Under the pieces are notes generated by a model, which was given only the letters and a program-made list of their open reading frames with translations, was not told where the DNA came from and did no database searches. Shown here piece by piece: positions 5,453 through 42,667 of a stretch of DNA of 64,000 nt. This DNA is from Candidatus Bathyarchaeota archaeon (lineage in GTDB: Archaea > Thermoproteota > Bathyarchaeia > Bathyarchaeales > Bathycorpusculaceae). The position numbers and the translations under genes are program-made. The stretch covers positions 96,001-160,000 of the forward strand of contig CAVTBV010000009.1 in NCBI GenBank assembly GCA_963733095.1, in the 5' to 3' direction. Positions within the stretch are counted from its first letter, which is position 1. Each line of letters begins with the position of its first letter.

Positions 5453-6411
5453 GCTTTCTCCTCCTTCTGAACGTAGTTAAGGTAAATTTCATCCAGCGAT
5501 GGCGACAGCATTGCTATTCTTCGGATGCGAATGCCCAATTTTACTATATTTGCCACTATGTCGTTGATTACTTGTTCCTCGTCTGTATCTTCAGAAAGAT
5601 AAACTAAAACTCTGCCCGGCGATGGCTGCTCAACCTTGCTGACATTCGCGATGGAGCTGAATTTTTGCCACTTGTCACTGACGTAGGAGAGGAGGACTTC
5701 GACGGTTTTTTGTTTGGATAGCTGAGATTTCAGCTCATTCATGGAGCCGACCATCTTGATTTTTCCTCGGCTGAGGATTCCGATTCGGTTGGCTACATCT
5801 TGGACATCGCTTAGGATGTGTGAGGAAAACAGGATGGTGGTGCCGTTCTTTGCGAGTTTTAGGACGATTTCTTTGAGTTGGTAACGGCTAAGTGGGTCGA
5901 GTCCGCCTAAGGGTTCATCCATAACCAACAGTTTTGGGTCATGAAGTAGCGCCTGTGCTAAACCCACTTTTTGGGTCATGCCGCCGGATAGCTGGGAAAT
6001 CTTTTTGTGACGAACCTCGCTCAACGACATCAATTCGAGGATTTTTGGTATGCGTTCCTCTACTTGTGCGTCGGTGATTCCTGAAAGTTTCCCGAACGTT
6101 TTTAGTGCATGATTAACCGTGCGCCACTCTTGGAACGCAACGTTTTGGGGAAGGTAACCAAGTAACTGGTGAGCTTCAAATTTCTGTTTAGGCACTTTGT
6201 ACCCGCCAATTTGGACTTCTCCCTGAAAATCGTTAATTAACCCAACCAAAATTTTCAGCGTAGTGGTTTTTCCTGCCCCGTTGGGACCGATGTACCCGAA
6301 GATTTCCCCTTCTTTAATGTCGAAAGATACGTTGTCTAGTGCTCGGAAGGTACCGTATTTTTTGGTTACCTCGCGAAGCACGACGCATGAGTTGAGGGAA
6401 TCCTGAGCCAT
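5449..6411 (-). CDS. ABC transporter ATP-binding protein
   Basis: GPNGAGKTT, LSGGM, LLVMDEP, SSH; start chosen at MAQDS (6411). Confidence 0.93.
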   Translation of the reverse strand: MAQDSLNSCVVLREVTKKYGTFRALDNVSFDIKEGEIFGYIGPNGAGKTTTLKILVGLINDFQGEVQIGGYKVPKQKFEAHQLLGYLPQNVAFQEWRTVNHALKTFGKLSGITDAQVEERIPKILELMSLSEVRHKKISQLSGGMTQKVGLAQALLHDPKLLVMDEPLGGLDPLSRYQLKEIVLKLAKNGTTILFSSHILSDVQDVANRIGILSRGKIKMVGSMNELKSQLSKQKTVEVLLSYVSDKWQKFSSIANVSKVEQPSPGRVLVYLSEDTDEEQVINDIVANIVKLGIRIRRIAMLSPSLDEIYLNYVQKEEKA

Positions 6412-9780: not shown

Positions 9781-9815
9781 TCAACACAATGCGAGGCTGA
9801 TATGCGCCCCTCTTT
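9781..9815 (+). repeat. 35-bp direct repeat, copy 1 (34/35 identical to 20698-20732)
   Basis: tcaacacaatgcgaggctgatatgcgcccctcttt, followed by cgtcggca as in copy 2. Confidence 0.9.
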
Positions 9816-9916
9816 CGTCGGCATCGATTATAAAATACGCGCGCATGAATATTTACCCGCATCTATTTATTTTTACACTGGAAAAAAAGTGTAGACCTCA
9901 AGTTTTCAGCAGGTCA

Positions 9917-11524: not shown

Positions 11525-13219
11525 GTGTGTTTAATGCAAAAGGAAGCAAAATTAAACTTGAACAAGAAAATATCAACAACTCTGCTCATATCAATTCTCT
11601 TAGCAAGCATTATAATTTTTGTGCTCCTTGGACCGGTAGAAATGGTCAAAGCAGACAACCAAAACAATAATTCAAACGGAGCCTCCACCTCTTGGCCAAT
11701 GTTCCATTCGGACCCAACTCATAGTGGTACAGGAACTGGCGGTCCATTACTTAATCCAACAGTACTATGGAAGTACAATACTTTTGCTGATGATTCAGGT
11801 CATGTTTATTCTTCTCCCGCTGTTGAAAATGGAGTCGTTTTCGTAAGCTCTTGGGATTTCAAAATCGTTTCCAAGAGTGTAGTCACAAATTACGGCAACC
11901 TCTATGCATTAAACGCTTCTAACGGCGACAAAATCTGGAACTGCTCAGTCGGACCAGTTACCTATTCTTCTCCTGCAGTTAAAAACGGGATTGTTGTAGT
12001 AGGTTCTTCGAGCGGTAACATTTCGGCAGTGAATGCTACTGATGGTAATCTTCTTTGGGCATACCAAACTGGCAGCAGCATTGAATCTTCTGCTGCAATC
12101 GTCAAAGACATAGTTTACATAGGGTCATTAGACGGCAATGTTTACGCTTTGAATCTTTTAACTGGTGTGAAAGTTTGGAACTCCACTATTGGCGCTGTCT
12201 ATTCCTCTCCTGCAGTTGTTAACAATGTAGTGTACGCTTGTTCTAACAATGGAGATTTCTGCGCTCTGAATGCCACTAATGGTGACCAAATCTGGAATTA
12301 CACCAGTCAAATATATTCCAACCATGGAAATTATCTCTACTCTTCTCCAGCAATCGCCAACGGCATGGTATACATGGGCTCGTATAATAATGACGCCTTT
12401 GCTTTGAACGCCACAAATGGAAAGTTAATTTGGAAGTACGCTACGGGCAGTGAAATTGCTTCATCTCCAGCAGTAATAAAGGGTATAGTTTACATAGGTT
12501 CATATGACGGCAATGTTTACGCTTTAAATGCCACCAACGGAGCAAAAATCTGGAGCATCTATCTCAACCAGATTGGTTGGTCGTCTCCCGCGGTTGCTAA
12601 CAATGTATTGTACATTGGATCAGAAGATGGTAATGTTTACGCAGTAAACGCTTTCAACGGTGCAGAACTTTGGAGTTACGATACTGGCAGTCTTCAACTT
12701 GATTCGTCTCCAGCGGTGGTTAATGGTATCGTCTACATTGGTTCATCGAATGGGTACGTTTACGCTTTTGGCACTCCTACACCTATTGTAACACCACCTC
12801 CAAGCCCAACTCCAATAATGACAGACCCCACTGCGACACCAACACCACCAAATCCAACACCAACGCCTATACCAACGGCTACATCCACTCCTCTCCCAAC
12901 CCCAACCGTAACTCCAATCCCTAACTTTACCGATCAAACATCGGCATCTACTCCTACGCCTTCACCGACCCCGACAACTACCTCAACACCTATTCCTATA
13001 TCCGACCCCACTCCTACTTCGACAGCTGCTACTACTCAGACATCTTCATCAACAGCTACAAACACTTCTACAGTTTCACCTATTCAATCCCACTCGCTCG
13101 CAGGAGTTGAAACGGATATTCTTCCTCATGAAGTCTTCTATTCCATTGCAGCCACAATCATAGCAGCCATTGCAGTCACAACGATAATAATACTCAGAAA
13201 AAAGAAAATAGAGCTTTAA
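11525..13219 (+). CDS. Secreted, C-terminally anchored PQQ-like (BamB-type) beta-propeller protein
   Basis: Signal peptide, WPMFH, repeated SSPAV..G.VYIGS.DG.VYALNA..G..IW blades, Pro/Thr linker, TM plus KKK tail. Confidence 0.9.
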   Translation: MCLMQKEAKLNLNKKISTTLLISILLASIIIFVLLGPVEMVKADNQNNNSNGASTSWPMFHSDPTHSGTGTGGPLLNPTVLWKYNTFADDSGHVYSSPAVENGVVFVSSWDFKIVSKSVVTNYGNLYALNASNGDKIWNCSVGPVTYSSPAVKNGIVVVGSSSGNISAVNATDGNLLWAYQTGSSIESSAAIVKDIVYIGSLDGNVYALNLLTGVKVWNSTIGAVYSSPAVVNNVVYACSNNGDFCALNATNGDQIWNYTSQIYSNHGNYLYSSPAIANGMVYMGSYNNDAFALNATNGKLIWKYATGSEIASSPAVIKGIVYIGSYDGNVYALNATNGAKIWSIYLNQIGWSSPAVANNVLYIGSEDGNVYAVNAFNGAELWSYDTGSLQLDSSPAVVNGIVYIGSSNGYVYAFGTPTPIVTPPPSPTPIMTDPTATPTPPNPTPTPIPTATSTPLPTPTVTPIPNFTDQTSASTPTPSPTPTTTSTPIPISDPTPTSTAATTQTSSSTATNTSTVSPIQSHSLAGVETDILPHEVFYSIAATIIAAIAVTTIIILRKKKIEL

Positions 13220-14228: not shown

Positions 14229-16877
14229 TTATGCTCGTTTCTTTATGACTATCAATGCAAGTATTGCCCCGACTATTGCGATTGCAACAATAATTCCTGT
14301 TATTCCGGGCAGTATGTATGTGTCAGCCATTGAATGTGTTGGTTCTTGAGTTGACGCTGGGGTTGCTGCTGCGTCTACTGCAAACGATGTTTCTGCAGAT
14401 GATCCATAATATGAGTTTGAGCCTGCAAAGGTTGCTATGACAGTGTATTTGCCGGTGATATCAGGTGTCCATTGTAGGCTGTAGGCTCCGCTTGCGTCGC
14501 TGACTGTGTTTCCAATACTGCGGTAGTTACCGTTTGAATCGATAACCGCGATGCTGATTGGGACGCCTGTTGTGTTTGTCGGTTTATCTTGCTGCATGTA
14601 CACGTATTCCATCCATAGCTTCATGCTTGCGTCAGATACACATGGCACTCCATTGGGGAATTTTGCTGCTTGCTCTTCTTGTGTTGTTCCTGCAGCGATA
14701 TCGCTGACTGTGCCTCGTATTACTAGGCTTTGGCCTTGAGTAACTGCAGCTAATGGTGCATCAACTGTTAGTTTGCTGGCGCCTTTGCCAACTGAGTAGA
14801 CTTGCATGTCATAGATGTTTAGGTATGTGAAGTATCCGTCTGCAACAATGTCGTACTGGCCAACGTACATGCCTGTGCCCATTCCAGTGAGAGTCCAGAT
14901 TTCTTCGCCTGTGGTGGCATTTAAGCATCTGTATTGTGCGTCTTTGTAGAGTGGTTGGTTTGGTGAATGCTCTGTTGTTCCGACGTAGACTTTTCCGTCA
15001 GCGATGACGTCTATGAATAAGGGGTAGTGGCTATAGACTGTGTTTTCGCCTGAGTATGTACTGTTGCCTTCTCCGCCTCTGCCATAACTCCACAGCAAGT
15101 CACCTGTTGCGTCATTATAGCAGTAGACTATACCGTCGTAACCTGCAGCGTACAGATTACCATACGCACTAAGTGTGTCTCTTCTCAGGGTATCCCATTC
15201 TACTACGGGTGTTTTTGCAGTCCAGAGGTGGTTTCCGTTGTCAAGGCTGAAGCCGTTGAATTCTAGGGTTTCTTTATCTTCTGTGACAAAGGTATTTGCA
15301 ATTGAATCAACTGCTACAAGTACTCTGGTTACGTTGCTGTCGGCTGGTGCATAATACTTTGTCCATAGAACGCTGCCTGCGCTGTTGGGGTCTATTTTTA
15401 CCAAGGTTATATTTGCGCCGGAGCTTTCTGCTCTTGGACCAGCTCCCAAGTTACCTTGGAGGAGGAGTAATTTGTCACCGACAATTACGTCTCTATAGAT
15501 AGTCCAGCCTTGTCCTGTAAGCGATGATACGGATACGTTCCAATCGTACATGCGGGAGTCGGTTGCATTGAAAGATGATGTCGGGTACCAGTTGCCTGCT
15601 CCAATCTGGCCTGCTGATAGTTGAGTATATTTTGATGAGTTCCATTCGCTCAGGTAATACGTGGGGTTTGATGTAGTGCCGAGGTTTGTCAATGAGTAAA
15701 TAAGGTATTCGCCACTCGGACCTGCTGCTGATGCGCCGTTTGCAGAGTTAGCTGCTAAAGTGGCAGATGCGGCTGATCCTGAAGGAACGTTAGTTAGGCT
15801 CATTCCGGTGAGTACGCCTGTTCTAGCATCATATGCTCTCCAGACTGTTCCGAGACCAGTCACTGTGGTTGTTGCTATTAGTAGACCGTTGGGTAATACA
15901 CCATGTTGGTTTCCATCTTCGTAGGCGTACAGGTAGCCGAAGCTTGGTACTATAGATACGCCTGTTGCGGTTGTGTTGATGCGCCAATTTTCTTTGCCTG
16001 TTTGCAGGTCTACTGAAACGTAGTCTCCGCCGCTGCCTGAGTTGCCATATGGTTCTTGATAGAAGAGGTTTCCCTGCATAACGATAGCGTTACTGAAGCG
16101 GGGATTGTATGAGCTGCCTGTGTAATATCCTTCACCTAGGTTTGTGGTTGAAGTCCCGCCGACAACCCCGCCAAATTGCAATGGTTTGGTCCACATAACA
16201 TGTGAAGTCTCAGGTCCTGATCCATCTTTCTGGTATCTACCGTAACCTGAACCACCTGTAGCGGTAGCACCTGTGCGGATGTAGGGTCCATTTAGCCAGT
16301 TGGAGGATATTAAGAACCAGTCCGAGTTTTCACCGTTTATTGGTCTACTCCAGTATTCGCTTGGAAGAGCAGCGCTTGGCGATATACCTTCAGTTTGTTC
16401 TTCCTGCACAGTTAGTTTCGTTACCGCTTGCGCAGGCTGATAGACGTCGTTTTGATAGGGACCGCTCCAGGTGTGTGTTTGTCCAGCATAGTTGAAAGTC
16501 ATGGTATAGGTTCCTACTGTATCAGGGGTAAACGAGTATGATTGTATGCCTGTTGTATCTTGAACTACAGCCCAAGTTTCAGTCTTGCTTGTCCCGTCCG
16601 GTTGAGTAATAGTCAATGTGTAGTCATGTCGACGAACGTCGTTGGTCACCAACGCACCATTTAAGGGTATATCAACCCACATGTAAATGTACACTGTCTG
16701 ACCAATCCCCACAGGATTTGGAGCAGCAGATACATAAGCGTATGATTTAATGTCCCAAGCAGGTGTATGTCCACTAGCAGTAGATAGAGTCGTCAATGGA
16801 ACAGCAATGGATACTACTAGAAACAACGTAATAATTGACAGTGCCTTTTTCGATAATGTATTTTTTTGTAGATTCAT
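14229..16877 (-). CDS. Large cell-surface beta-propeller/Ig-like protein (PQQ-like repeats), membrane anchored
   Basis: Start chosen at MNLQK; signal peptide, PNPVGIGQ, LPSEYWSRPI, EHSPNQPLY, C-terminal Ig-like domain, TM plus KKR; paralog of 38182-40881. Confidence 0.88.
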   Translation of the reverse strand: MNLQKNTLSKKALSIITLFLVVSIAVPLTTLSTASGHTPAWDIKSYAYVSAAPNPVGIGQTVYIYMWVDIPLNGALVTNDVRRHDYTLTITQPDGTSKTETWAVVQDTTGIQSYSFTPDTVGTYTMTFNYAGQTHTWSGPYQNDVYQPAQAVTKLTVQEEQTEGISPSAALPSEYWSRPINGENSDWFLISSNWLNGPYIRTGATATGGSGYGRYQKDGSGPETSHVMWTKPLQFGGVVGGTSTTNLGEGYYTGSSYNPRFSNAIVMQGNLFYQEPYGNSGSGGDYVSVDLQTGKENWRINTTATGVSIVPSFGYLYAYEDGNQHGVLPNGLLIATTTVTGLGTVWRAYDARTGVLTGMSLTNVPSGSAASATLAANSANGASAAGPSGEYLIYSLTNLGTTSNPTYYLSEWNSSKYTQLSAGQIGAGNWYPTSSFNATDSRMYDWNVSVSSLTGQGWTIYRDVIVGDKLLLLQGNLGAGPRAESSGANITLVKIDPNSAGSVLWTKYYAPADSNVTRVLVAVDSIANTFVTEDKETLEFNGFSLDNGNHLWTAKTPVVEWDTLRRDTLSAYGNLYAAGYDGIVYCYNDATGDLLWSYGRGGEGNSTYSGENTVYSHYPLFIDVIADGKVYVGTTEHSPNQPLYKDAQYRCLNATTGEEIWTLTGMGTGMYVGQYDIVADGYFTYLNIYDMQVYSVGKGASKLTVDAPLAAVTQGQSLVIRGTVSDIAAGTTQEEQAAKFPNGVPCVSDASMKLWMEYVYMQQDKPTNTTGVPISIAVIDSNGNYRSIGNTVSDASGAYSLQWTPDITGKYTVIATFAGSNSYYGSSAETSFAVDAAATPASTQEPTHSMADTYILPGITGIIVAIAIVGAILALIVIKKRA

Positions 16878-16922
16878 TTGTTTTTTTCTCCTTTTGTGGC
16901 TTAATGTTTGTAAATATAACAG

Positions 16923-16949
16923 TAATAAGGCTGGCTCACCTATCGTGAG
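16923..16949 (-). promoter_or_regulatory. Palindromic operator CTCAC-N5-GTGAG beside a TATA-like box, copy 1
   Basis: taataag-gctg-gctcacctatcgtgag, about 50 bp upstream of the surface-protein start. Confidence 0.6.
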
Positions 16950-17126
16950 TACAAAATTCAGCCATAGTTCCACAAAAAGAGGCAAAGAAGAAAAATATAA
17001 ATCAAAGACAACAACGAATAACGATGCATTAGTGTACGATTGTAGAAATTGTCTTTTTATTTTTGATTTTCTAGCAGACTCATTTTTTTCCTTCTTTTTA
17101 TGAACCTTTAAACATGTAAGAAGCGC

Positions 17127-18015: not shown

Positions 18016-18274
18016 AGACAGAATGAAAATTTATGGCGACCTTTTGTCAATATTGTACGCCGAAAGTAGAGAAGAAAAAATAGTGTTAACGCATGTTCAA
18101 GTACAGATTAGAGTTCCTTTTGATAGGTTAAAAACTTACATATCAGAACTTAATGATTTAGGCTTAATTGAGGATCAGACTTCGCTTAAGCTTACAGAAA
18201 AAGGTAAACAGTATATCATTGAATACAAGAAAGTTCTTGATTTTATGAAACGCATGGGCGTAGCCTACCGGTAG
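17996..18274 (+). CDS. Archaeal winged helix-turn-helix regulator
   Basis: RRDRMKIYGDLL...LTHVQ...LKTYISEL..LGLI...LTEKGKQY. Confidence 0.85.
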   Translation: MKQIARRDRMKIYGDLLSILYAESREEKIVLTHVQVQIRVPFDRLKTYISELNDLGLIEDQTSLKLTEKGKQYIIEYKKVLDFMKRMGVAYR

Positions 18275-18718
18275 ACAATACCAAAATAGTTGAATCAATG
18301 AATGATACTACTACTCTATAACCGATACTTTGAATTTTATGGATTTAGAGGAAGGTACATTGGTTAAGCTCTGCGTATTTATTGGGGAGGTCAGAGTAGA
18401 AAGACCTCACTTACTGATAGGTTTGTTTTTGTGATGGGTTGTTTTAGGATGACAGTATTTGTTCTGCTTTTTGTTCGTCAAAATTGTGTTTAGACAGTAG
18501 CTTGTGCCATTCGAGGTGAGCGCAAAGTAAGTATCGGGTGATTCTTGTAAAACCCCAATTCGTTGGCAAACATAACTCGCTCTTGACTCTTGCCCATGGA
18601 ACATATAAAATGAAGTAAGAGTTAGCATTAAAAATGGGAATTGCGGGTGTACACTTCACTATTAGTTAGCTTTTGAGATAGTTTGATATACCACACAAAA
18701 CATGTGGAGTGTGGTTGA

Positions 18719-20095
18719 ATGAATTTGAGTGAACAAACGTTCCTTGACTCAGTATCAAACCCAAAAACAAAAAAATGCTACAGATACGGACTAAAAATAT
18801 TCTGCCAATGGTACGGACAAACAGCAGAACAAATCCTTGAACTAAGAAAAGACGACCTAACACAGCGCGTCGGGGAAAACCTGATTGAATACCGAAACCG
18901 AGCATCAAGATTTGAAAAAGAAATAGAAAAATTCCACACATACCTTTCAACAACAAAAAGCATCAACACCGCAAGAGTCCAAACATTAGGAATAAGACAA
19001 CTCTTCAGATACTATGAAATGCCTATGCGCTTTAGAAATGGAAGCAAGATAGCTAAAACCGTCAAAACAACCAAAAACTTTCCCCTAACAATCGAACACG
19101 TACGGAAAATGTTTGACGTAGCAAACCTAAGAGAAAGAGTAATTCTGAGCACCGCTACTGATTTAGGCTTAAGAATAGGCGATTTCATGAACCTCAAAAA
19201 ATCAGACTTACCTTCATTAAATCAAGAATCGCCCATTTCCTTTGAAATAATGACTGAAAAAGAAAACGTTTTAGCTTGTGGATTCTTAAGCGAAGAAACA
19301 GTTGACCTTCTTAAAATCTATCTTCCAACATTAGACCACAAAAAAGATAATCCCTACCTTTTCCCTTCAAACGGAAACAGAAGCATATCAGACGAATGGT
19401 TAAACCGTCTGCTACAGAACTTAGCAAACAAAGCAAAAATAAACTTAAACGGCAAAAGAGTAACCTTTCACTGCTTTAGAAAAATGTTCCTCTCAGCATC
19501 CATTGACAGCGGAATAGGCTTAACAGCTGGTAAAAAATTGTGCGGAAAAACAATAGCCCAATCAGACGACACATACCTAACCGTCGTTAACCTCAAATCA
19601 AAATTCCTACAAATCAAGAAATTCTTAACCATTAAAGAACAGCCAAACCTTGAAATAGAGCAAATTGAACCCTTAAAAAATGCGATAACTAAGCTTCAAA
19701 GCGATTTAACAGAGCAAAAGCTAATTACTTCTGTAATTTCTGAGGCGCAAAACAATAGAATTAAAGACATTGAAAAGAAACTTTTTTCCGTACAGCCTGA
19801 TGTGGAATGGGAGAAATATCTTTCAGAACATCCAGACGAATTTGAACGATTTGAAAAACAACATGAAGAACGTCTGAAATGGGGAAAAGAGCATCCAGAA
19901 GTCGTTAAAAAGCAAACAGAGCAAATTGACAAGAAATTTAGAGAATATGAAAAATGGCGAGAACAACATCCAGAATTAAAAGAACAAGAAGAAAAAACAT
20001 ATGTTGAACATCTTGAAGACCGAATAGTTGAATTAGAAAAAACTCTGCAAGAGCTTGCAGACTTTGTTAGAAAAAGACCAGAAGGAAATACTTGA
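18719..20095 (+). mobile_element. Tyrosine recombinase/integrase with C-terminal coiled-coil extension
   Basis: GLRIGD (R), TEKE (K), HCFRK (HxxR), LCGK, DDTY (Y nucleophile); N-terminal core-binding domain. Confidence 0.92.
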
Positions 20096-20133
20096 GTGGA
20101 TTTTAAAAGCAGAAGGAGGAGAATTAATTATTC

Positions 20134-20682
20134 ATGTCAAACCAGTCAAAGCCAAGTAACTCTTGCAAACCAACTAAGAAGCCGCCTCGCCCAATTCCTA
20201 AAAATAGGTTTCCCGAAGGCATTCAATTATGTAAAGACAATATTGCCGACTTCTTAAGTGATGCCCGCAATGTTTTAGCCAACGGTAAACCCTACCATGC
20301 CTATATCTTGTTTGAATTTGCCTTAGAAGAATTTGGTAAAATAATTATGCTAAAAGAAGCAAGAGACGACCCAAACAATAAAACTAATGCAGCGCAAGTT
20401 CCTGAGCATGTTTTTACTAACCATCGGGGTAAATGCGATAAGGCGATTGATGTTTTAGGTACGGATTTAAAAACCCTCTACAATGGTATCTGGGCTAAAG
20501 GTATATGGGCACCAGGCATTTGGGGAGAAAGCGAGGTAGAAGTGGGTCATAACACGCGACTAAAGTGTGCCTTCGTTGATTATCTCAATAACAACTGGAC
20601 TATTGGCGACAACGCAATCACAAAAAGCAACTTGACCAGTTTAATAGAAAAATTGGATGCCCGCACCAAATTGGAGAAATAG
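20134..20682 (+). CDS. AbiV-family (HEPN-like) abortive-infection/toxin protein
   Basis: N...FLSDA..L...ALEEFGK...NHRGK...RLKCAFVD matches the AbiV motif pattern. Confidence 0.72.
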   Translation: MSNQSKPSNSCKPTKKPPRPIPKNRFPEGIQLCKDNIADFLSDARNVLANGKPYHAYILFEFALEEFGKIIMLKEARDDPNNKTNAAQVPEHVFTNHRGKCDKAIDVLGTDLKTLYNGIWAKGIWAPGIWGESEVEVGHNTRLKCAFVDYLNNNWTIGDNAITKSNLTSLIEKLDARTKLEK

Positions 20683-20697
20683 CCATTAAAGGACTTG

Positions 20698-20732
20698 TCA
20701 ACACAATGCGGGGCTGATATGCGCCCCTCTTT
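20698..20732 (+). repeat. 35-bp direct repeat, copy 2
   Basis: tcaacacaatgcggggctgatatgcgcccctcttt. Confidence 0.9.
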
Positions 20733-20746
20733 TCTTTTCGTCGTCG

Positions 20747-21058
20747 GCAAAAAAGCCCCGAACATCAGCCCAACGGGTGACACGCTTAAATGTTGGAAAT
20801 TTGCAGCAAATTTACAACTTTTAAGCGTTTCATTCGGGGCTTTTTTGCAGTAGTAACCAAAAACAACCGTCTGGTGTAGCATCAACAACAAACGGTCGAT
20901 TATCACAATGCGGTTCTTGACTGCGTTGCCCTCACAATGTAGGGCAACATAGGCAAACAAAGGTGCTCTGCGACATTTCCGCACATACGGCAATGTCCAG
21001 AGCACAGCAACCAACCGTTAACCATTGGATAGCGGAACCGTCGGGGCGAACCAACGGT
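20747..21058. ncRNA. Highly structured non-coding region (candidate ncRNA or ssDNA origin)
   Basis: Perfect 16-bp inverted repeat 20747-62/20833-48 enclosing hairpin 20782-20828; further hairpins 20866-96, 20925-48, 20963-21005, 21015-35, 21037-58. Confidence 0.55.
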
Positions 21059-21286
21059 CGCCACGATAAAAGCAAAAATAGTGTTAAGGCTTAATTCTGC
21101 AAACCAAAAGAAGCACGGCAAGAGAATTTAAAAGAATAGACAAGTTCTCATAGCTTAGGTCGTTCGTCGTCGTCTTCACTTGATATAATAACACAAATCT
21201 CGACATGAAACAATGGATAATATGTGTGTAAAATAAGACATAAATTGAGGAAATGGGATAGGGTATTGTGATGGTTGAAGCATACT

Positions 21287-21430
21287 TTGAAAGTCTTATT
21301 GAAAGTAACTACCACTGAGAACGGTTCTCGAATTTGCAGTGTTCCTATGAAGAGATTAAAACAGTTGACTTCTGGTCGTAAGTTGGTTTGGTCTTTGGAA
21401 GGGGAATGGCTTGTTTTGGAGTCGTGTTGA
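21287..21430 (+). CDS. 47-aa AbrB/MazE/SpoVT-like protein, copy 1
   Basis: MKVLLKVTTTENGSRICSVPMKRLKQLTSGRKLVWSLEGEWLVLESC (TTG start); many synonymous differences from copy 2. Confidence 0.65.
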   Translation: MKVLLKVTTTENGSRICSVPMKRLKQLTSGRKLVWSLEGEWLVLESC

Positions 21431-21580
21431 TTGAAGGTAGTTTTGAGGATTTCTAAGAAGGGGAGTCAAGGTGGTTTTCATGTTGGCAGTGTTCCTATGA
21501 AAAGGCTGAAGCGGTTGGCTTCTGGTCGTCAACGCTTTTGGAAGCTTGAAGGAGATAGTTTGGTTCTTCAATCTTCTTGA
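21431..21580 (+). CDS. 49-aa AbrB/MazE/SpoVT-like protein, copy 2
   Basis: MKVVLRISKKGSQGGFHVGSVPMKRLKRLASGRQRFWKLEGDSLVLQSS (TTG start right after the TGA of copy 1). Confidence 0.65.
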   Translation: MKVVLRISKKGSQGGFHVGSVPMKRLKRLASGRQRFWKLEGDSLVLQSS

Positions 21581-21795
21581 TTCTACCAAAAATATGAAAA
21601 GAAATAAAAAAAAATAGATTTTATACCTTATCTCTCTCCATTTAAACCTATCTCATGGACTCAGAAAAACAAATACTGAAGGATTTCCATTTGAGAAAGT
21701 GGATATGTTTGACATTTTCTCACAACAACCTAAACTGAATTTAGTCAAGAGACTTTGACAAGCATATTTTTTAGGTAGGTTAAACCAGTGGTTAA

Positions 21796-22551
21796 GTGAT
21801 TGCTATGGGCAAGAAAGCAGTTGCTGTAGGAATAATTCTCGTTATTCTGTCATTATCTTTACCTTTAGCATTTGGGTATTTTGAAACCAATATTATAGAT
21901 ACCTCATGGACTGGCAGTGCTACACAATTTTTGAATAATGCACAACCTTATCCACAATGGAAAGACGAATACACTCTGAATGCTTACACCATAACTCTGT
22001 TTGAAAATGGGACAAGCACTTTTGTTAATGCTACTAATGGAGATAGCTTTTCTTCTTATCTTCTAAATGTAATGACAAGAGCTGACAGTCAGATGAGCTC
22101 CGTGAGTGATGCTTTTGTTAATAATGTAACTCAGAATGATAAGGTAGTTTATTTACGAAGCAGATTGGGCACTAACTTTGCTCAGGCAGGAATTTTTGTT
22201 TGGGATACATATTTTGTATTGGAAGATAACCTGTATCAAGGGAGTTTAAAGGGAACAATATTCATAGAGCATGATTCTGACAATGTACGCACATGGCAGC
22301 ATTGGGCTATACTACTAGGGCAAAGCCCTACACCTAGTCCTACACCTGTTCCAACTCAAAACCCTACACCAACACCAACTTCTCAACCCACAGCTAACCA
22401 AAATAATTCACCTACACAAAACCCAACAGCCAATCCCACTCCAACTCCTACCATTCCAGAGTTTTCTTGGTTTATTATTTTGCCTTTGTTCCTTGCAATA
22501 CTCTCTATTGTTGTCCTAATTAGAAAGAGAAAAGTACCTTTGATAAAGTGA
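21796..22551 (+). CDS. Secreted surface protein with Pro/Thr linker and PEF-CTERM-like sorting signal
   Basis: Signal peptide; PTPTIPEFS + TM + RKRK. Confidence 0.8.
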   Translation: MIAMGKKAVAVGIILVILSLSLPLAFGYFETNIIDTSWTGSATQFLNNAQPYPQWKDEYTLNAYTITLFENGTSTFVNATNGDSFSSYLLNVMTRADSQMSSVSDAFVNNVTQNDKVVYLRSRLGTNFAQAGIFVWDTYFVLEDNLYQGSLKGTIFIEHDSDNVRTWQHWAILLGQSPTPSPTPVPTQNPTPTPTSQPTANQNNSPTQNPTANPTPTPTIPEFSWFIILPLFLAILSIVVLIRKRKVPLIK

Positions 22552-22628
22552 AAGCCTTTTATTTAATAATCACATTAGCAATGTTGGTATATCAATAGCT
22601 TTAGAAATCAAACTAATAATAAAGTGTT

Positions 22629-22675
22629 CGGGTGATATCTCCACTTGAACGTAGGTTCAAGTCCCACCCCGCCCG
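22629..22675 (+). repeat. Composite att-like site B (arm + 9 nt + tRNA 3' end)
   Basis: cgggtgatatctccactt-gaacgtagg-ttcaagt-cccac-cccgccc-g. Confidence 0.8.
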
Positions 22676-22823
22676 TTTTGAGTCGAGGGATTATTTTCGT
22701 TTTCTGAATGATAAGACCTTCTCTTCCTACTATACCCCAAGATTTTGAAAGGTCTTGCGTACATAGCAGCATCAAAAAGGATATAAAGAGAGACTGACGA
22801 CCTCAACTCAGGAGATAAACCCG

Positions 22824-23138
22824 ATGCCATTTTGCAATAAATGTGGAAAAGAGATATCTGATGATATGAAATTCTGCCCAAATTGCGGAACGCCCATTGG
22901 AATGGAGGAAGAGAGCTTTTCTGTTTCCTCTGAAGACTTGGTCCAGAAAGTCAAAGAATTGTTTCATGAAGGAAATGTCAGGCGAATAACTATAAAGAGC
23001 TAAGAAGGCAAAACTCTGCTCGACATTCCCGTTACAGTCGGAGTTATAGGAATTGTCCTAGTTCCCTGGCTTGCCGCGATTGGAGCCATAGCGGCTTTAG
23101 CTACGAATTGCACTATAGTGGTTCAAAGGCAGAAATGA
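22824..23138 (+). pseudogene. Zinc-ribbon + DUF4342-like protein with an in-frame TAA
   Basis: MPFCNKCGK...FCPNCG...DLVQKVKELFHEGNVRRITIKS*EGKTLLDIPVTVG...AIAALATNCTIVVQRQK; stop at 23001-23003. Confidence 0.8.
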
Positions 23139-23487
23139 GTTAAAAGCAAAAGGTCTTCCACGAATCGGGCGCCATAGGATAAGTCAGATTCAAAAATAAT
23201 TATTGTATTTTATACGTTCTGATGATAAGATATTTTCCGGAAGGACCTTCCTCTATGGGGCCCAGATTTTGGAGGCCTTGGTGCCGCCTTTTGCTTTATA
23301 ACAGCGTACGTTGCAGGATCCATGGGCATTTTATGCACTTAAACACATACACTTATAAGCTGTGTATGCACTTATGTACTAATGTGAATAAGCGGGGACA
23401 AAACATGACAAACAGAAAAATCGAATACACAAATTGGTTACTCGCTTATTTCAACAATATCTAACCAGCAAAAAGAAGTGACTAAAA

Positions 23488-23631
23488 TTGGGCCGCATCA
23501 ACGTTGACATCTCAGACGACTTAGAAAAACAGCTCAGATTAAAAACCGTAGAGCAATTCGGAGGCAAAAAAGGCGACTTATCCAAAGCGGTCCAAGAAGC
23601 AGTAAAAACATGGGTCGAAATAAACCAATAA
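23488..23631 (+). CDS. 47-aa ribbon-helix-helix (CopG/Arc-like) regulator
   Basis: MGRINVDISDDLEKQLRLKTVEQFGGKKGDLSKAVQEAVKTWV (TTG start). Confidence 0.75.
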   Translation: MGRINVDISDDLEKQLRLKTVEQFGGKKGDLSKAVQEAVKTWVEINQ

Positions 23632-23792
23632 AGTCGTCCCTCCTCAAACCATCAATAACTATATTATAAGAAGCCTAGGTAAAAGGCCCGGGTAAGCCAG
23701 CTAGCCTGGAACACCTCACATGAGGATTATGGGCAATCTAGCTGCAAAAACCCTTTTTAGAATGTTTTCCAAGCAAACAACGATAATCTCTT

Positions 23793-24017
23793 TTAGCTGT
23801 TACCTTTCGGTACATTATTAGCAAGTTCGCTTTCGCTTCTTAATTGTCGTTTTAGATAAGCAACTACTTCAAAACTTTGATTAATTTGAAGCGCAACAAT
23901 AGAAACCAATTCCCACCCATCTAAACCATATTTATTCAACAACTCTTCTTGTGTTTTGACACCGGCATCCAGGATTCCTTTCACCAAAGCTATTGAGACA
24001 TACTCCCATTTTGTCAT
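23793..24017 (-). CDS. DUF4177-like protein
   Basis: MTKWEY...LNKYGLDGWELVSI...AYLKR. Confidence 0.75.
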   Translation of the reverse strand: MTKWEYVSIALVKGILDAGVKTQEELLNKYGLDGWELVSIVALQINQSFEVVAYLKRQLRSESELANNVPKGNS

Positions 24018-24733
24018 GTTTGAACCTCTAACAACATTATTTTTCTCTAGAACTGAATTAACCAAGTAGTATTTTTCTTTTGAGGTTTATTTAGTTGAGA
24101 TACAGAAGACGTCAAAAACCCCTAAAAAGCGGGTCGGATGGAATTAAGAGACTTTGGCGCAACCAATTTTTGGAAAGAAAATAAAAACCCCTGCAGCAAC
24201 TACTTATCGAGAACGAAGAAACCAAGAACCCTGAAGACACACGGACCAAAATACATATTCCTTTTGAAAAATATTCTATCATGGTAAACAATAAAAGAAG
24301 TGTATAACAAGATGGAAATCATGAAAAAATCGATAAACGTCACAAATGGAGAAGAACCCCCTAACCCTAAACCAAACCCTAACCCTCAGCCAAATCCAAT
24401 CCCAAATCCAATTTAGTAAGAGCTTTTGCTTCATCTATGAATCCTATGAATCTTAAAACCTGAAGGATGTAAGCGTCATTGCCCTCACCAAATCCGGGCT
24501 ACCTTCCTTTAACTGTAATTTACTGCTGAACGAGTTTAGCAGCATAGACTTATAGCAGAGGAATTGTGCTGACTTAGTAGACGCAGGCATAGCATTTTTG
24601 GTTGTCGCGCGTAACTCGGCAGTGATAGGGAATCCCGCGGGGTATGGACGTAGACGCACTATAGTAGTCCACGAAGAACACCACGATTAATATCATTAAC
24701 GTGAAAAGATTACAATTAAAAAAAGGGAATATG

Positions 24734-24780
24734 CGGGTGATATATCTACTTTGCGAGGGGTTCAAATCCCGCCCGGTCCA
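24734..24780 (+). repeat. Composite att-like site C (arm + 9 nt + tRNA-Ala-like 3' end)
   Basis: cgggtgatatatctactt-tgcgagggg-ttcaaat-cccgc-ccggtcc-a; CCGGTCC-A fits the G3:U70 acceptor of archaeal tRNA-Ala. Confidence 0.82.
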
Positions 24781-24972
24781 TAAAGCGATCCAAACCCTGC
24801 AGAGTTCAAAACCTATTGCGGATTTATACCGTTTGAGATGTGGGACTGAGGCTTAGGACCACGCGGCAATTTCAATATTACTCTTCGTATTATGCGATGA
24901 TTAAAAAAAGAAATAGGGTGTAGGCGTAGTACCTTTGCAGGTTGCCCTCCCTTGTGCTTCAGATAAGCCAAT

Positions 24973-25542
24973 CTATTTGGGAGGAGGGGCTACTTGGGTT
25001 GCAGTTATTTTTCGGTGATAGAATCTGGCGGCAATGCTTAATCCTGTGGCGACGAAAGCCAAGTAGAAGGGCCAATTGAGAGCGGCTGAGACGTTAACGC
25101 TGGTGTTTGAATTTTGACGAGTAATTGTAGTTGCACCGATCAGAGGCAAACTGAAGCCTCCCAAGGATTGTGCTATTAGAGGTAAAGCAACTATTACTGC
25201 AATAAACGCTACGAGTATGTACAGTGGTTTTTTGTATCCAAATCCCAGTAGATGCTTTGAGTAAGGCGCAGTTGGTTTTACGGAGTAGATCGTTAGTGCT
25301 ATTCCGCCTGCCAGCAGGGTAAGTAAGCATGCTATGTTCAAGGCCAAAATCAAGGGTATTGCAACTGAAGTCCCAGAAATTGAAAGGTTAACGTTAACTG
25401 GAGAGAAATCAACCTGAGCATTCACTGGGGTTCCGGCCATGAACTGCCACCATGGAACAAATAGCGAAATAACAACCAGCAACAAAGTTGAAATTCCTGC
25501 AGCCAACGCAATAAAATTAATTTTGGTTTGCATCATAATCAC
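24973..25542 (-). CDS. Hypothetical membrane protein
   Basis: About 4 TM helices; SLFVPWW motif. Confidence 0.7.
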   Translation of the reverse strand: MIMMQTKINFIALAAGISTLLLVVISLFVPWWQFMAGTPVNAQVDFSPVNVNLSISGTSVAIPLILALNIACLLTLLAGGIALTIYSVKPTAPYSKHLLGFGYKKPLYILVAFIAVIVALPLIAQSLGGFSLPLIGATTITRQNSNTSVNVSAALNWPFYLAFVATGLSIAARFYHRKITATQVAPPPK

Positions 25543-25543
25543 C

Positions 25544-26203
25544 TTAACTTATTATTTCGATGTTACCGATATCCTGTGGTGACGAGCCCAAGTTTGTTAC
25601 GCCATTAACAGTAATTGCACCGTTAATTACTGAAACGTCCACTGATGAGAAACCGCTGTAGTTCTGGGCTAAGTCAGCTTGACCTTCTTGTGTCAAAGCA
25701 CCCGAAACAGTTACAGAAACAGTTTGACCAGAACGAACCGTGACAGGGGCATTGTTGAGGCTTAAAGTTCCCAATTGATATTGATCCGCTGTGATTTCAA
25801 CTGCTCCACCCAATGAATTTATCGTCGCATCTTGGTTATCATTGTTGGTTATACTGAAGGTTAACGTTATCGTATTTTTAGACGTGTCAATTTGTCCGCT
25901 AATGAAAGATGGGTTTAATCTGTTTGAAGAAATATCATTGTTGTTATTGTTATCCCCGTTATTTCCATTGCCGTTATTGTTGTCGCCATTTGGGGCGGTG
26001 ACGATGTTTTGATTATTATTGCTGTTCACGCTGTTGCCATTATTATTGGAGTTATCGTTGTTGTCCGAATGCATGAGTTGTTGCAGTTGAGGAGTGACTA
26101 CCATTTGGGGCAAATTATCAAGGTGCATTACCACCACTGCTCCAATTGGTCCTAAAACGCATCCAATGCTAATTAACGCCAGAACAATACGTAACACTTG
26201 CAT
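25544..26203 (-). CDS. Membrane-anchored hypothetical protein with Asn-rich linker and beta-rich domain
   Basis: N-terminal TM, poly-Asn tract, beta-sandwich-like C-terminus. Confidence 0.7.
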   Translation of the reverse strand: MQVLRIVLALISIGCVLGPIGAVVVMHLDNLPQMVVTPQLQQLMHSDNNDNSNNNGNSVNSNNNQNIVTAPNGDNNNGNGNNGDNNNNNDISSNRLNPSFISGQIDTSKNTITLTFSITNNDNQDATINSLGGAVEITADQYQLGTLSLNNAPVTVRSGQTVSVTVSGALTQEGQADLAQNYSGFSSVDVSVINGAITVNGVTNLGSSPQDIGNIEIIS

Positions 26204-26743
26204 CTTAGCTCATCTTCTCGTAAGCCACGATATTTTCATTATCCAACATTTTAAATCATCAAAAAATATCAACCTTCTCCAATTAATTATGACTTATGAA
26301 TTGGCAATTCATGTTCATACCTTGGATAAATTCATCCTAGGTTAAATGAGCCAGAAAGGACTCATCCGGAGAAACTTGAACCGCTTCAGGGCAAATCCTC
26401 TTTTTAGATCTTTAGGCAAAAACATGATCGAGACAAAAAATTGGCTGTTATTTCCAGGGACTCGTTTTCTTTATGGCAAGGTGCAGATTATTTTTTTTGA
26501 CCTCTCCAAGCTGAACACATGGCTGCTACAACGCCGAATTTGGCTGCTATTATGAAAACTTCTCTTAGCGCTAAAATGAAAGGATTAGCTATGCTCTTGA
26601 GGGAAATAGTTGTCACTAATGTCAGAGCTATATGGTAAGAATATTGAATGCCGACTGAGATTTAGATAATAATTTAAATAAGTAACCACTTGAGAAACAA
26701 AATTCTAATATTAAGCATTGCAGTGTGTTTATCAAACACCCGT

Positions 26744-26821
26744 GGGCCGGTCGTCTAGCCTGGTTAGGACGTTGGCTTTACGAGCCAAAGGTCGCCGGTC
26801 CGAGTCCGGCTCGGCCCACCA
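26744..26821 (+). tRNA. tRNA-Val(TAC), intronless, CCA encoded
   Basis: Acceptor GGGCCGG/TCGGCCC-A-CCA; anticodon arm TTGGC-TTTACGA-GCCAA; T arm GCCGG-TCCGAGT-CCGGC. Confidence 0.95.
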
Positions 26822-27069
26822 TTCTTTTCATAAAAGGCTTATTCCTTGGTACTGAAGACAAATCCGATGTTGTTCTGAAGAAAAGGTTCCCTTGAATTCA
26901 ATTGCTATGACCTAACCATGAGAACAAATATTTGAGTAACCATAAATGGCTATTCAGGGTCTCTAAGGTAAGCGGTTTAGACGTCTGTATTGCGAATGAA
27001 GATCATTTCCTTGAGAGTAAGAAATGGGCGAGGAAGGAAAAAGAAGATGGAAGTTATCAATGAAATGCT

Positions 27070-42441: not shown

Positions 42442-42466
42442 ATGCTTACCTTCCAACTTCTTGTAG

Positions 42467-42530
42467 GTAGGCATTATCAGCATCCACTTGGCTGCGGTTT
42501 TGGCGTTTGCCACGGCTAATGCCATAGCCC
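42467..42530 (-). ncRNA. Fluoride (crcB) riboswitch
   Basis: Minus strand GGCTATGGCATTAGCC...AAACCGC...GCTGATAATGCCTAC fits the consensus GGNGATGRNNNYCNCC...AACYGC...GCTGATRRNNYCTAC; directly upstream of crcB. Confidence 0.9.
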
Positions 42531-42667
42531 GATTTTCTGAGCAATTCTATGTTATTAAAACTTTATCGAGTAAAAACAAAAATCGTATCTTCCGATAAGC
42601 CGTTTGCTTTTGGGAATGAGCTAATCCTATATATTAGCAGATTTAATATTCAAAGTGGATTAGAAAA

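Follow-up and report, generated by a model that had tools for sequence, protein, structure and literature searches.

A conserved, structured non-coding region of integrating elements in Bathyarchaeia, most likely a replication-origin region

In rolling-circle plasmids a single-strand origin is placed 5' of the nick site, functions in one orientation, and is swapped as a cassette between plasmids with unrelated Rep proteins (a subject of reviews by Khan and by del Solar). As regards the nick site, an extract of PMC5031790 gives an origin consensus of pC194/pUB110 that contains CTTATCTTGATA, and the origin of phiX174 is annotated at the A that follows CTTG. In phage G4 and RSF1010 ssiA, priming on ssDNA takes place at sites with GCGAAGC-type mini-hairpins, according to an extract of PMC13037366. 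The signals of this kind known so far (GCGNAGC/GCGNNAGC, at the complementary-strand origin of G4 and at ssiA) are bacterial and are recognised by the primases DnaG or RepB'. SIRV1 ORF119 (PDB 2X3G), the Rep of an archaeal virus, is described in a passage of PMC4187194 as a Rep of the superfamily II fold whose substrate is a linear genome with hairpin ends. Type III toxin-antitoxin systems (ToxIN, AbiQ/antiQ, CptIN) combine an abortive-infection-type gene with a structured non-coding stretch, the antitoxin being an array of short direct repeats in tandem. In integrons, attC sites close every cassette at its 3' end as imperfect palindromes with R''-L''...L'-R' boxes, and carry the R''/R' consensus RYYYAAC/GTTRRRY.

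The region described here recalls each of these systems in part. It lies in a window of 64,000 nucleotides, by which we mean the whole stretch of DNA analysed, from genome G000; C13, C2 and C3 are contigs of that genome, while L-numbers denote other loci and G-numbers other genomes. The conserved unit runs from about 20700 to about 21194 on the + strand (Table 1). In our view it belongs to a plasmid-like element of Bathyarchaeia that integrates, in which it forms a conserved non-coding module and most likely the replication-origin region. As in the origins of pC194/pUB110 and phiX174, copies in Bathyarchaeia have a CTTG|ATA-type motif; as in rolling-circle origins, complete relatives have a Rep-fold gene on the same strand just downstream, and a hairpin-rich stretch lies 5' of the motif on the putatively nicked strand. 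Unlike those plasmids and phages, however, the element resides in an archaeal host, occurs in integrated form with a tyrosine integrase of its own, and in most copies has no Rep. Further, at about 400 nt the structured part exceeds that of those origins, the Rep-fold protein falls outside the Pfam Rep families, and the roles of Rep and nick site are here read from sequence and a structure model. We know of no sequence that the region has in common with ssoA, ssoU, ssoT or ssoW.

The G4 and RSF1010 signals are matched by a core at a hairpin tip, on one strand and by the presumed replication start, in 19 of the 31 copies, but the window copy is without this hairpin. ORF119 is the best structural match of the Rep-fold protein; unlike ORF119, the proteins of Bathyarchaeia have extra regions, and the gene is absent from the window's genome. 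A tyrosine recombinase, single cargo genes bounded by a short repeated site and one-strand folding are shared with integron attC. In contrast to attC, box A is conserved in sequence over about 27-35 nt, the R''/R' consensus is not seen in box A by eye, and the long structured part is present once per element and not once per cassette.

Table 1. Features of the window in and around the structured region.
Feature	Position	Strand	Remarks
Lone box A and first bases of domain B	9784..9834	+	10.9 kb upstream; BLAST 97% over 35 nt; nhmmer E 7.7e-07
Conserved end and promoter region 5' of integrase	18642..18718	+	sharp onset of homology among four type-1 integrase loci
Tyrosine integrase "type 1", 458 aa	18719..20095	+	Pfam PF00589, E 5e-11
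HEPN_AbiV gene	20134..20682	+	variable cargo between integrase and box A; Pfam PF18728, E 2.9e-11
Box A, ACAATGCGGGGCTGATATGCGCCCCTC	20703..20729	+	5-bp inverted arms around 8-nt spacer; candidate recombination core
GGGGC / GCCCC hairpin	20710-20714 / 20723-20727	+	read in sequence
Domain B	20747..20848	+	perfect 16-bp outer stem around near-palindromic hairpin 20778-20832
Perfect 16-bp inverted repeat of domain B	20747-20762 / 20833-20848	+	
Enclosed 27-nt arms of domain B	20778-20804 / 20806-20832	+	89% complementary
Extra hairpin AACCGTC...AACGGTCG	20865..20899	+	linker preceding box C; long-linker copies only
Box C, ACAATGCGGTTCTTGACTGC, plus hairpin GTTGCCCT (20925-20932) / AGGGCAAC (20941-20948)	20905..20948	+	most conserved part
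Hairpin D, long variant	20963..21005	+	near-same hairpin in L033 and L038
Two further hairpins	21010..21062	+	specific to window copy; no counterpart in most relatives
Second AACCGTC...AACGGTCG stem	21036-21060	+	
Nick-site-like motif CTTCACTTGATATAATAACAC	21174..21194	+	3' end of conserved unit
Two short ORFs in tandem, of 51 and 49 aa	21275..21580	+	in place of relatives' Rep-fold gene; no Pfam/PADLOC match

In the window the region follows an AbiV gene. A first-pass annotation, made from the sequence alone, had called this gene AbiV/HEPN, correctly: the ORF matches PF18728 with 44.2 bits (gathering cut-off 27.1) over profile positions 4-148 of 155 and is a member of the family. Zero PADLOC models matched the ORF. 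Each hairpin named in that annotation can be located, both AACCGTC...AACGGTCG stems included, and the folding of either strand far surpasses that of shuffled controls (z -6.8 to -9.0), a comparison it had proposed. A structured region thus exists as described, but not with the extent of about 360 nt and the start 15 nt after the AbiV stop; the first hairpin begins 28 nt after the stop.

Conservation is uneven along the unit. Box A is near-invariant in 23/23 aligned copies, and box C has a 23-nt core with little or no variation across 30 copies in alignment. Domain B is where the family varies and covaries, its stems elsewhere changing sequence yet remaining paired; the window's domain B has an atypical apex, without the family's P2 stem with GCTGAAA loop. 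Hairpin D has a short GAGCGGACTCGCAAGACCGCGC form in most copies. At the position of the two hairpins specific to the window copy, most relatives have other hairpins and a GCGAAGC mini-hairpin. In addition, extra lone copies of box A (about 32-36 nt, with sharp edges) are found upstream of full copies in L021, L022, L042, L033, L036 and the window; the lone site in the window recurs, same flanks included, in G077, a different genus.

When folded as RNA, 20683-21080 reaches -145 kcal/mol on the + strand, compared with -102.5±6.3 for shuffles (z -6.76; 0/100 shuffles as good), and -161 kcal/mol on the - strand, compared with -116.6±6.2 (z -7.20), the window's own copy being slightly better folded on the - strand. 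When 20695-21210 is folded as DNA the z values are -9.04 (+ strand) and -7.49 (- strand). We further drew a structure by hand on 15 short-class copies and scored covariation on it: 91.4% of 729 cells are paired, while slid partners give 38-44%, and double changes occur at 9 pairs, versus 4.3±1.3 in shuffles (0/500 shuffles equal). There are 50 G-T cells and 16 A-C cells, or 24 and 16 once two near-invariant G-T columns are dropped. By alifold, the consensus structure has -41.9 kcal/mol for the + strand versus -33.3 for the - strand, and the + strand folds better in 13/15 copies with DNA parameters and in 9/15 with RNA parameters. The preference of the structure for the + strand is modest; the favoured strand is the one with the nick-like motif, as a lagging-strand origin requires.

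No known RNA family accounts for the structure in Rfam: zero families reach their gathering threshold within the region, and with E<=10 allowed there are just chance-level miRNA and snoRNA models (11-24 bits, with gathering scores of 40-180). Three identities that we considered were rejected. The SRP RNA lies at C2:127992-128306 (152 bits), the only RNaseP_arch match (24.5 bits) is on C3, and for a tRNA-like box C, ARAGORN finds only a tRNA-Val at 26744, the sole tRNA found.

Near the 3' end of the unit, many copies show a GCGAAGC mini-hairpin and then a motif of the CTT(A/T)(A/C)CTTG(A/T)(T/C/A)A type. CTTCACTTGATATAATAACAC agrees with the phiX174 origin CAACTTGATATTAATAACAC at 17/20 positions with one gap (hand count; 17-18/20 for the C13 and window copies), and by this alignment a cut in the window motif would fall between 21182 and 21183. 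CTTG[ATC][ATC]A is present in 16/31 copies (regular expression, 290 nt downstream of hairpin D), and the orientation of the structure relative to the CTTG motif is constant in every copy that has it. In L048 and L032 the motif reads CTTATCTTGATA, the same as in the pC194/pUB110 consensus, and the terminal motif is also found just 5' of Rep homologues that have no boxes A-D (L082, L087). The GCGAAGC-type core forms the tip of a GC-rich hairpin; [C/G]CGAAG[C/G] is on the + strand in 19/31 copies and its complement in 3, and CTTG follows within 5-50 nt in 15/31. The mini-hairpin is absent from both the window copy and the C13 copy. Two side observations concern the motif: in L048 an 81-nt perfect tandem duplication, left out of the evidence because its phase is not fixable, starts at CTTGATA, and in PMC6098607 CTTGATA is present only within a primer.

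Among the flanking proteins, integrase is the sole widely common one (10/33 loci). The type-1 integrase sits either upstream of the region in the same direction or downstream and convergent to it. That of the window is 80-81% identical to the integrases adjoining the copies at C13, L022 and L021, and when these four loci are aligned they are near-identical from TGCGGGTGTACAC through the integrase ATG, while the flanks farther upstream are unrelated.

A second family of flanking proteins recurs in 4/33 loci (L072, L021, L046, L048); its members are 285-400 aa long and encoded on the same strand as the region. In L072 the integrase, the cis region and this gene (ORF 4822-5679) fall within about 2.7 kb: 14 nt after the integrase stop, with no cargo between, box A begins, and the other boxes through D, the motif and the gene follow. 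An AlphaFold model of the protein (pLDDT 68 overall, >85 over about residues 40-150) aligns with SIRV1 ORF119 (2x3g) in VIA-align at Z 10.0, with an rmsd of 2.7 Å over 108/116 residues and 15% sequence identity; the next match is at 7.1, and parvovirus NS1 (6.9) and AAV Rep (6.4) follow. Foldseek with the same model finds further Rep domains weakly, none at E<=0.001, and the clear match comes from VIA-align alone. The protein has no sequence match in Pfam, PHROG or PDB and no relatives in IMG/VR. We call it the Rep-fold protein. The family has an invariant Tyr (position 162 of alignment A5) and an invariant His, the latter a single conserved His with no clear HUH pair. Its members are 24-36% identical among themselves, and the structured region adjoining them is conserved far better.

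Rep and structure coincide rarely, which counts against an origin. A Rep profile matches 12/151 genomes and the structure model 10/151, with G048 alone in the overlap, and a search of the other Rep loci for box C-D, with filters off, found none. By our own tally Rep is directly downstream in 2 of about 20 loci with at least about 1.5 kb of downstream sequence, to which L046 with its shorter contig can be added; the Rep of L048 is upstream. The whole genome G000 contains no Rep homologue. Since all three copies there are without a Rep gene, and the window copy is without the mini-hairpin as well, the G000 copies are probably orphan, non-autonomous remnants.

The window and C13 copies have common flanks at both sides, with 83% identity between window 21174-21582 and C13:15435-15029. 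The position that AbiV has in the window is filled at C13 by an ORF of 172 aa, unrelated and on the opposite strand. In general, cargo of defence type clusters on the box A side among the loci: AbiV, NERD, DUF4145, HamA plus helicase, and TIR. Synteny with the congener G165 breaks off near 18274 and is lost from there to the tRNA-Val at 26744; the same-genus genomes are too rearranged for an empty site to be defined beyond these break points. A comparison of the left island edge (18200-18760) with 20683-27000 gave chance 11-mers only and no att repeats.

We used the pattern of the box C core as the query to collect the family. Genome contigs yielded 11 loci, of which 9 bear Bathyarchaeota or Bathyarchaeia in their titles, and metagenomes yielded 28; many contigs end within about 100 nt of the pattern, as is expected of a repeat. 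In total 31 distinct copies were gathered from Bathyarchaeia MAGs and metagenomes, and the three in the window's genome are divergent from one another. The distribution is sporadic: a model of box C-D matches 10/151 family genomes, each at least 85% complete, and the 10 congeners among them give a single weak match (G081, 21.4 bits). In IMG/VR the box C pattern is absent and no relatives of the family were found. The 24 sequencing runs listed as sharing words with the region each hold <=0.13 of them, and are soil, sediment, peat, riverine or unspecified metagenomes; none is recorded as an RNA run and their kind is presumed to be DNA, so that they bear on expression in neither direction. In literature searches on plasmids and integrases and on rolling-circle and HUH topics, such elements of Bathyarchaeia are not described, which at the level of titles is weak evidence of absence.

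The family itself, its conservation and covariation, its neighbours and its sporadic occurrence are directly observed; from them we infer Rep activity, a nick position, action as ssDNA and a role for box A, which could combine as follows. The element would integrate by its tyrosine recombinase, and complete relatives would carry a rolling-circle Rep-type initiator. Box A, which directly follows the integrase or a cargo gene, is the probable recombination site, and AbiV would be exchangeable cargo inserted between integrase and box A. Rep may nick at the CTTG|ATA-type motif, from which leading-strand synthesis would start. Once the + strand is displaced as ssDNA, domain B, box C, hairpin D and the other hairpins would fold, and the folded strand could serve as the lagging-strand (single-strand) origin at which host enzymes prime the complementary strand. 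The reading we favour, at slightly less than an even chance, is that the region is in this way the cis part of an integrated rolling-circle element: box A would be a possible recombination site, the hairpins a structured origin for the lagging strand, and the terminal motif the nick site for the leading strand. Of the features that such an origin should have, a nick-site sequence on the displaced strand is indicated by likeness of sequence only; conserved structure on that strand, in fixed orientation to the motif, is present, with the modest strand preference noted above. Against the origin, in addition to the rare coincidence with Rep, the modest strand signal and the absence of the family from IMG/VR, the mini-hairpin is missing from the window and C13 copies, the Rep-fold protein has one conserved His in place of a clear HUH pair, an RNA would account for the G-U-like pairs and the conserved loops just as well, and the AT-rich motif could be an archaeal TATA-type promoter of the downstream gene.

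The main rival is a new structured ncRNA of about 300-450 nt, transcribed from the + strand and carried by mobile elements, which we consider possible but on balance doubtful. Its function could be, for example, to regulate replication, copy number or expression of the integrase, or it could arise by processing of the upstream gene's 3' UTR. The stems covary, the loops GCUGAAA and UCGCAA are conserved, and G-U pairs are frequent; boxes A and C have a common leader that varies jointly within each genome (ACAATGCGG, ACATAGCGG, CTTGCGG); many copies have A/T-rich, TATA-like hexamers (read by eye) about 25-35 nt 5' of box A, and TTTT often lies 3' of hairpin D. Most copies are, further, without a nearby Rep gene, and the region outlasts the Rep proteins in conservation. 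However, box A often begins 10-20 nt past the stop of unrelated genes (the integrase in L072, AbiV in the window, a 205-aa ORF in L048), too close for a promoter common to the copies to fit in between; Rfam has no matching family, the loci have no conserved partner protein in common, and the unit ends in features of a DNA-type origin, namely the mini-hairpin and the nick-like motif. One can tentatively think of an undescribed class of large structured RNA, specific to integrating elements of Bathyarchaeia and defined by boxes A and C, a three-way junction and the two loops; it would take part in replication or recombination of the element, for instance by priming or as a guide-like cofactor of integrase or Rep. 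The most specific RNA proposal, that of the first-pass annotation, was a structured RNA neutralising the AbiV/HEPN toxin in the style of type III toxin-antitoxin systems. The region is strongly structured and adjoins the AbiV-family gene on the same strand, but an AbiV homologue stands beside 1/31 copies only (tblastn over 94 loci, flank Pfam), and the annotation's own counter-evidence is found as far as integrases are concerned, as the region co-occurs with them regardless of AbiV. A second AbiV gene in G000 (C13:88217-88681, 43% identical to that of the window) has no such region beside it by BLAST and nhmmer of the genome and tblastn of the loci. Unlike type III antitoxins, the region lies downstream instead of upstream of the gene, whose slot holds unrelated genes in other copies, and there is no tandem array: Tandem Repeats Finder (19900-21900, minimum score 30) reports only an A-rich 10-mer at 21588-21616, repeats being otherwise scattered two-copy matches. 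Nor is AbiV known to have the ToxN/AbiQ fold. The antitoxin is thus scarcely credible, and of the annotation's fallback, an ssDNA origin or oriT, the ssDNA-origin part fits better than the RNA partner in view of the integrase, the Rep-fold protein, the nick-like motif, the mini-hairpin and the strand.

Box A invites another explanation, in which the region is chiefly an attP-like attachment region, with box A as crossover core and box C and the other conserved stretches as accessory binding sites. Box A has the shape of a tyrosine-recombinase core (inverted arms, 8-nt spacer), resembles box C, and directly follows the integrase gene in L072; related Rep elements have tRNA sequence at the equivalent position, in L077 a 3' fragment that separates integrase from Rep and is typical of att sites, in L076 and L078 a complete tRNA immediately ahead of Rep; and sharp-edged lone copies flank single cargo genes, NERD in L021 and a 129-aa ORF in L022. 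Double-stranded binding sites would, however, leave the covarying long hairpins and the three-way junction of domain B unexplained. The type-1 integrase is found on either side, the integrase-proximal end of the element is a different sequence, and element-free genomes have no box A-like target; the box A pattern (<=2 mismatches) matches 3/151 genomes only, so a widespread chromosomal target was rejected as well. We therefore think this unlikely as the main function. It is more improbable still that the region is a chromosomal ncRNA gene which mobile elements use as integration target, in the manner of tRNA or tmRNA genes. Integrases at either end of the region, defence-type genes clustering on its box A side and the tRNA genes in the equivalent slot next to Rep would agree with this, but the region is sporadic, with one weak match among 10 congeners, has three divergent copies in G000, and in the window and C13 shares both flanks, as parts of one element do.

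What these readings imply differs. If the region is an RNA, it would be a new large ncRNA class outside Rfam, and its partner would be a tyrosine recombinase element instead of AbiV. The case also illustrates that a type III antitoxin should not be read into structure next to an Abi gene until the travelling companions of that structure have been checked. The region marks a family of small integrating elements with variable defence-type cargo by box A and, in complete members, a Rep-fold initiator that has so far gone unannotated. Bathyarchaeia are, to our knowledge, abundant and largely uncultured archaea in which plasmids are almost unknown. If the region is indeed a replication origin, the family would offer a candidate for the lagging-strand origin in archaea, together with a nick site and, in L072, a minimal replicon of about 2.7 kb, and a replicon of the L072 type could seed genetic tools for Bathyarchaeia.

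The hairpins that the first-pass annotation had listed 3' of the AbiV stop codon are all found in the sequence, and the non-coding region that they form (box A, domain B, box C and hairpin D, in 5'-3' order) folds far better than dinucleotide shuffles on each strand. The z-scores (+ strand, then - strand) are -6.76 and -7.20 with RNA folding, and -9.04 and -7.49 with DNA folding. The window's own copy as RNA folds slightly better on the - strand, as had been suspected from the C-A mismatches. A search of Rfam with the region gave no family match.

Features of the window at the hairpin-rich locus and elsewhere
Feature	Position	Strand	Remark
Tyrosine integrase	18719-20095	+	ORF
HEPN_AbiV family protein	20134-20682	+	ORF
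Hairpin-rich region	~20700-21194	+	boxes A to D
Small ORF, 51 aa	21275-21430	+	tandem, similar to the next
Small ORF, 49 aa	21431-21580	+	tandem, similar to the previous
tRNA-Val (TAC)	26744-26821	+	right edge of ~8 kb genome-specific island
Lone 35-nt piece of region	9781-9815		BLAST against own genome
Lone box A and first bases of domain B	9784-9834	+	near-identical flanks on both sides in another genus (L014, G077:C136 ~15033-15090)
Repeat, ~1 kb	22740-23781		copies on contigs C15 (88%), C10 (84%), C13 (77%)
PQQ/beta-propeller and Ig-like surface protein, large	14229-16985	-	strongly expanded paralogue family, dozens of 64-88% DNA matches across contigs
PQQ/beta-propeller and Ig-like surface protein, large	11525-13219	+	same family
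Fluoride riboswitch (crcB motif, RF01734)	42461-42538	-	39.6 bits, gathering score 34

The window lies on contig C9 of a Bathyarchaeia genome (G000), in which a BLAST search with the region gave two more full copies, on contigs C13 (~15400-15800) and C2 (~39150-39650). Box A (ACAATGCGGGGCTGATATGCGYCCCTC) and box C (ACAATGCGGTTCTTGACTGCGTTGCCCT...AGGGCAAC) are common to all three; between the boxes the hairpin sequences diverge while the hairpin form is kept. Using a degenerate box C pattern, we collected the family from three collections. Of 11 loci from the GTDB species genomes, nine are titled Bathyarchaeota or Bathyarchaeia, one is on a 2.4-kb contig from a Pirellulales bin, and one is a chance-looking match within a Streptomyces coding sequence. 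The JGI metagenomes gave 28 loci, including one chance-like (L041), and IMG/VR gave none. In many loci the pattern stands no more than ~100 nt from a contig end, which is what a multi-copy repeat would give.

Partial and rearranged forms also occur. The lone box A in the window and in L014 could be what an old att site left behind, or a mobile segment common to the two. In L025/L016 (CP070714.1, ~5700-6500 of L025) box C-D stands without box A between inverted-repeat arms of ~85 nt and adjoins what by eye appears to be a tRNA-gene 3' end. In L048 (364-532) an 81-nt sequence is perfectly repeated in tandem (2.1 copies), starting at the CTTGATA motif where the structured region ends.

For the structure we used 15 "short-class" copies, which align well. 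It consists of a box A hairpin, a long stem P1, a stem-loop P2 with a GCTGAAA loop, a small P3, two box C hairpins and hairpin D. Standard pairs fill 91.4% of 729 cells. Sliding the 3' partners by 1-3 columns lowers this to 38-44%, a control that is generous because the structure was drawn from the same 15 sequences. Stronger evidence comes from the pairs changed on both sides: there are nine, against 4.3±1.3 in shuffles, and none of 500 shuffles reached that number. Those in P1, P2 and P3, such as GTCG/CGAC to ATTG/CAAT, outweigh the slid control. The + strand is moderately favoured: G-T cells number 50 against 16 A-C cells (24 against 16 once two near-invariant G-T columns are removed), the alifold consensus energies of the + and - strands are -41.9 and -33.3 kcal/mol, and copy by copy the + strand folds better in 13 of 15 under DNA parameters and in 9 of 15 under RNA parameters.

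The first-pass annotation had proposed that the region is an RNA antitoxin of AbiV, next to which it lies. However, tblastn of the AbiV protein over 94 loci and the genome gave matches solely at the window's own locus and at a second HEPN_AbiV gene of this genome (C13:88217-88681, 43% identical), beside which there is no copy of the region; the antitoxin is not supported and is the least probable reading we considered. Elsewhere the slot adjoining box A holds a 172-aa ORF of no known kind (C13), NERD (L021), DUF4145 and a 129-aa ORF (L022) or HamA and a helicase (L027); in L028 a TIR is nearby, and in L072 the slot is empty, with 14 nt between the integrase stop and the start of box A. AbiV is incidental cargo.

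When the flanking ORFs of 33 loci were clustered, the sole widely common family was integrase (10 loci), which is also nearby at all three copies of this genome. Type 1 (window, C13, L022, L021; 80-94% identity) lies upstream in the same direction in the window and C13, and downstream and convergent in L021 and L022; type 2 is found at C2 and L026. Co-occurrence with integrases regardless of AbiV, named at the outset as speaking against the antitoxin, is where the data point, and so is the fallback of a ssDNA origin of an integrated element.

A covariance model of box C-D matched 10 of 151 family genomes (at least 85% complete), with strong scores only in G000 (three copies), G157, G048 and G112; ten congeners gave one weak match (G081, 21.4 bits). 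Box A with at most two mismatches is found in 3 of the 151. Synteny with the congener G165 is broken between ~18274 and the tRNA-Val, a repeat of which was looked for at the island's left edge and not found. Since it is sporadic and synteny is lost, the region belongs to the accessory, mobile part of the genome and not to its core genes.

In the 290 nt that were scanned 3' of hairpin D, 16 of 31 distinct copies match the pattern CTTG[ATC][ATC]A, and by eye about five others have apparent variants. In many copies such a motif marks the end of the conserved unit, a likeness to the phiX174 and pC194/pUB110 origins. The window's motif (21174-21194) agrees with the phiX174 origin at 17 of 20 positions, counted by hand, and the C13 motif at 18 of 20; in NC_001422, from which it was taken, this origin is annotated at the A after CTTG. 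CTTATCTTGATA of L048 and L032 is as in the pC194/pUB110 ori consensus given in PMC5031790. Just 5' of the motif a [C/G]CGAAG[C/G] core lies on the + strand in 19 of 31 copies and as its complement in three, and CTTG follows it by 5-50 nt in 15 of 31. According to a 2026 review (PMC13037366), mini-hairpins of this kind (GCGNAGC) are found where ssDNA is primed in phage G4 and at RSF1010 ssiA. The GCGAAGC mini-hairpin is absent from the window's and C13 copies.

A second recurrent flanking family is an unannotated protein of 285-400 aa (L021, L046, L048, and L061 inside L072). It has no sequence match in Pfam, PHROG or PDB, and each of the 22 homologues in the databases is labelled "hypothetical". 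Its alignment shows an FMTLT-like block and invariant Glu, His and Tyr, a pattern we take to be Rep-like. The core of its AlphaFold model is confident, and VIA-align over 48,161 chains placed SIRV1 ORF119 (2x3g) first (Z 10.0, rmsd 2.7 Å, 108 of 116 residues), with the next match at 7.1, parvovirus NS1 at 6.9 and the AAV Rep nuclease domain at 6.4; Foldseek found the same folds weakly. SIRV1 ORF119 is a Rep with a superfamily II fold, according to PMC4187194. In L072 integrase, box A to D, a GC-rich hairpin, CACTTAACTTGATAATATAT and the Rep-fold gene follow on a single strand. In the window and C13 the two small tandem ORFs, common to both, stand at the Rep position; the second has 87% DNA identity to C9:40176-40348, and family searches with them gave no match. 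CTTCACTTGAT lies upstream of Rep homologues that lack boxes A-D too (L082, L087).

In six further loci (L076-L081, from G136, G091, G017, G169, G072 and G148) homologues of this protein, preceded by CCCTTTTTCTTGCTGTGA, lie directly 3' of a tRNA gene or tRNA 3' fragment; L077 runs from the integrase C-terminus through the tRNA fragment to Rep. These loci look like members of one family of elements, with Rep and integrase, that integrate at tRNAs within the same archaeal family.

In rolling-circle replication, as outlined in PMC5714925, the double-strand origin is where Rep nicks, and the single-strand origin of the displaced strand is where host enzymes prime. On this scheme box A would be a recombination site, the structured stretch a lagging-strand origin and the terminal motif the nick site. 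Against an origin, the Rep profile is found in 12 of 151 genomes, with the structure also present in G048 alone, and the box C-D model with filters off gave nothing at other Rep loci. No Rep homologue was found in G000, and the missing mini-hairpin of the window's and C13 copies, like the small ORFs that they have in place of Rep, also speaks against an origin. Further, Rep directly follows a tRNA gene or 3' fragment in L076-L078, with the L077 fragment between integrase and Rep, so that the structured region fills the slot of its relatives' attachment site. Single cargo genes are flanked on both sides by lone copies of box A, which suggests that this box, at least, takes part in recombination. 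That the region is mainly an att region is unlikely. The AT-rich motif could be a promoter instead, and a new structured ncRNA of the element is possible, if doubtful. A targeted host RNA gene is very improbable.

The hairpin array is real and is part of a cis module, conserved and covarying, that integrating elements of Bathyarchaeia carry. Tentatively, with a chance somewhat short of even, it may be the replication or recombination region of a rolling-circle-type element, orphaned in this genome.
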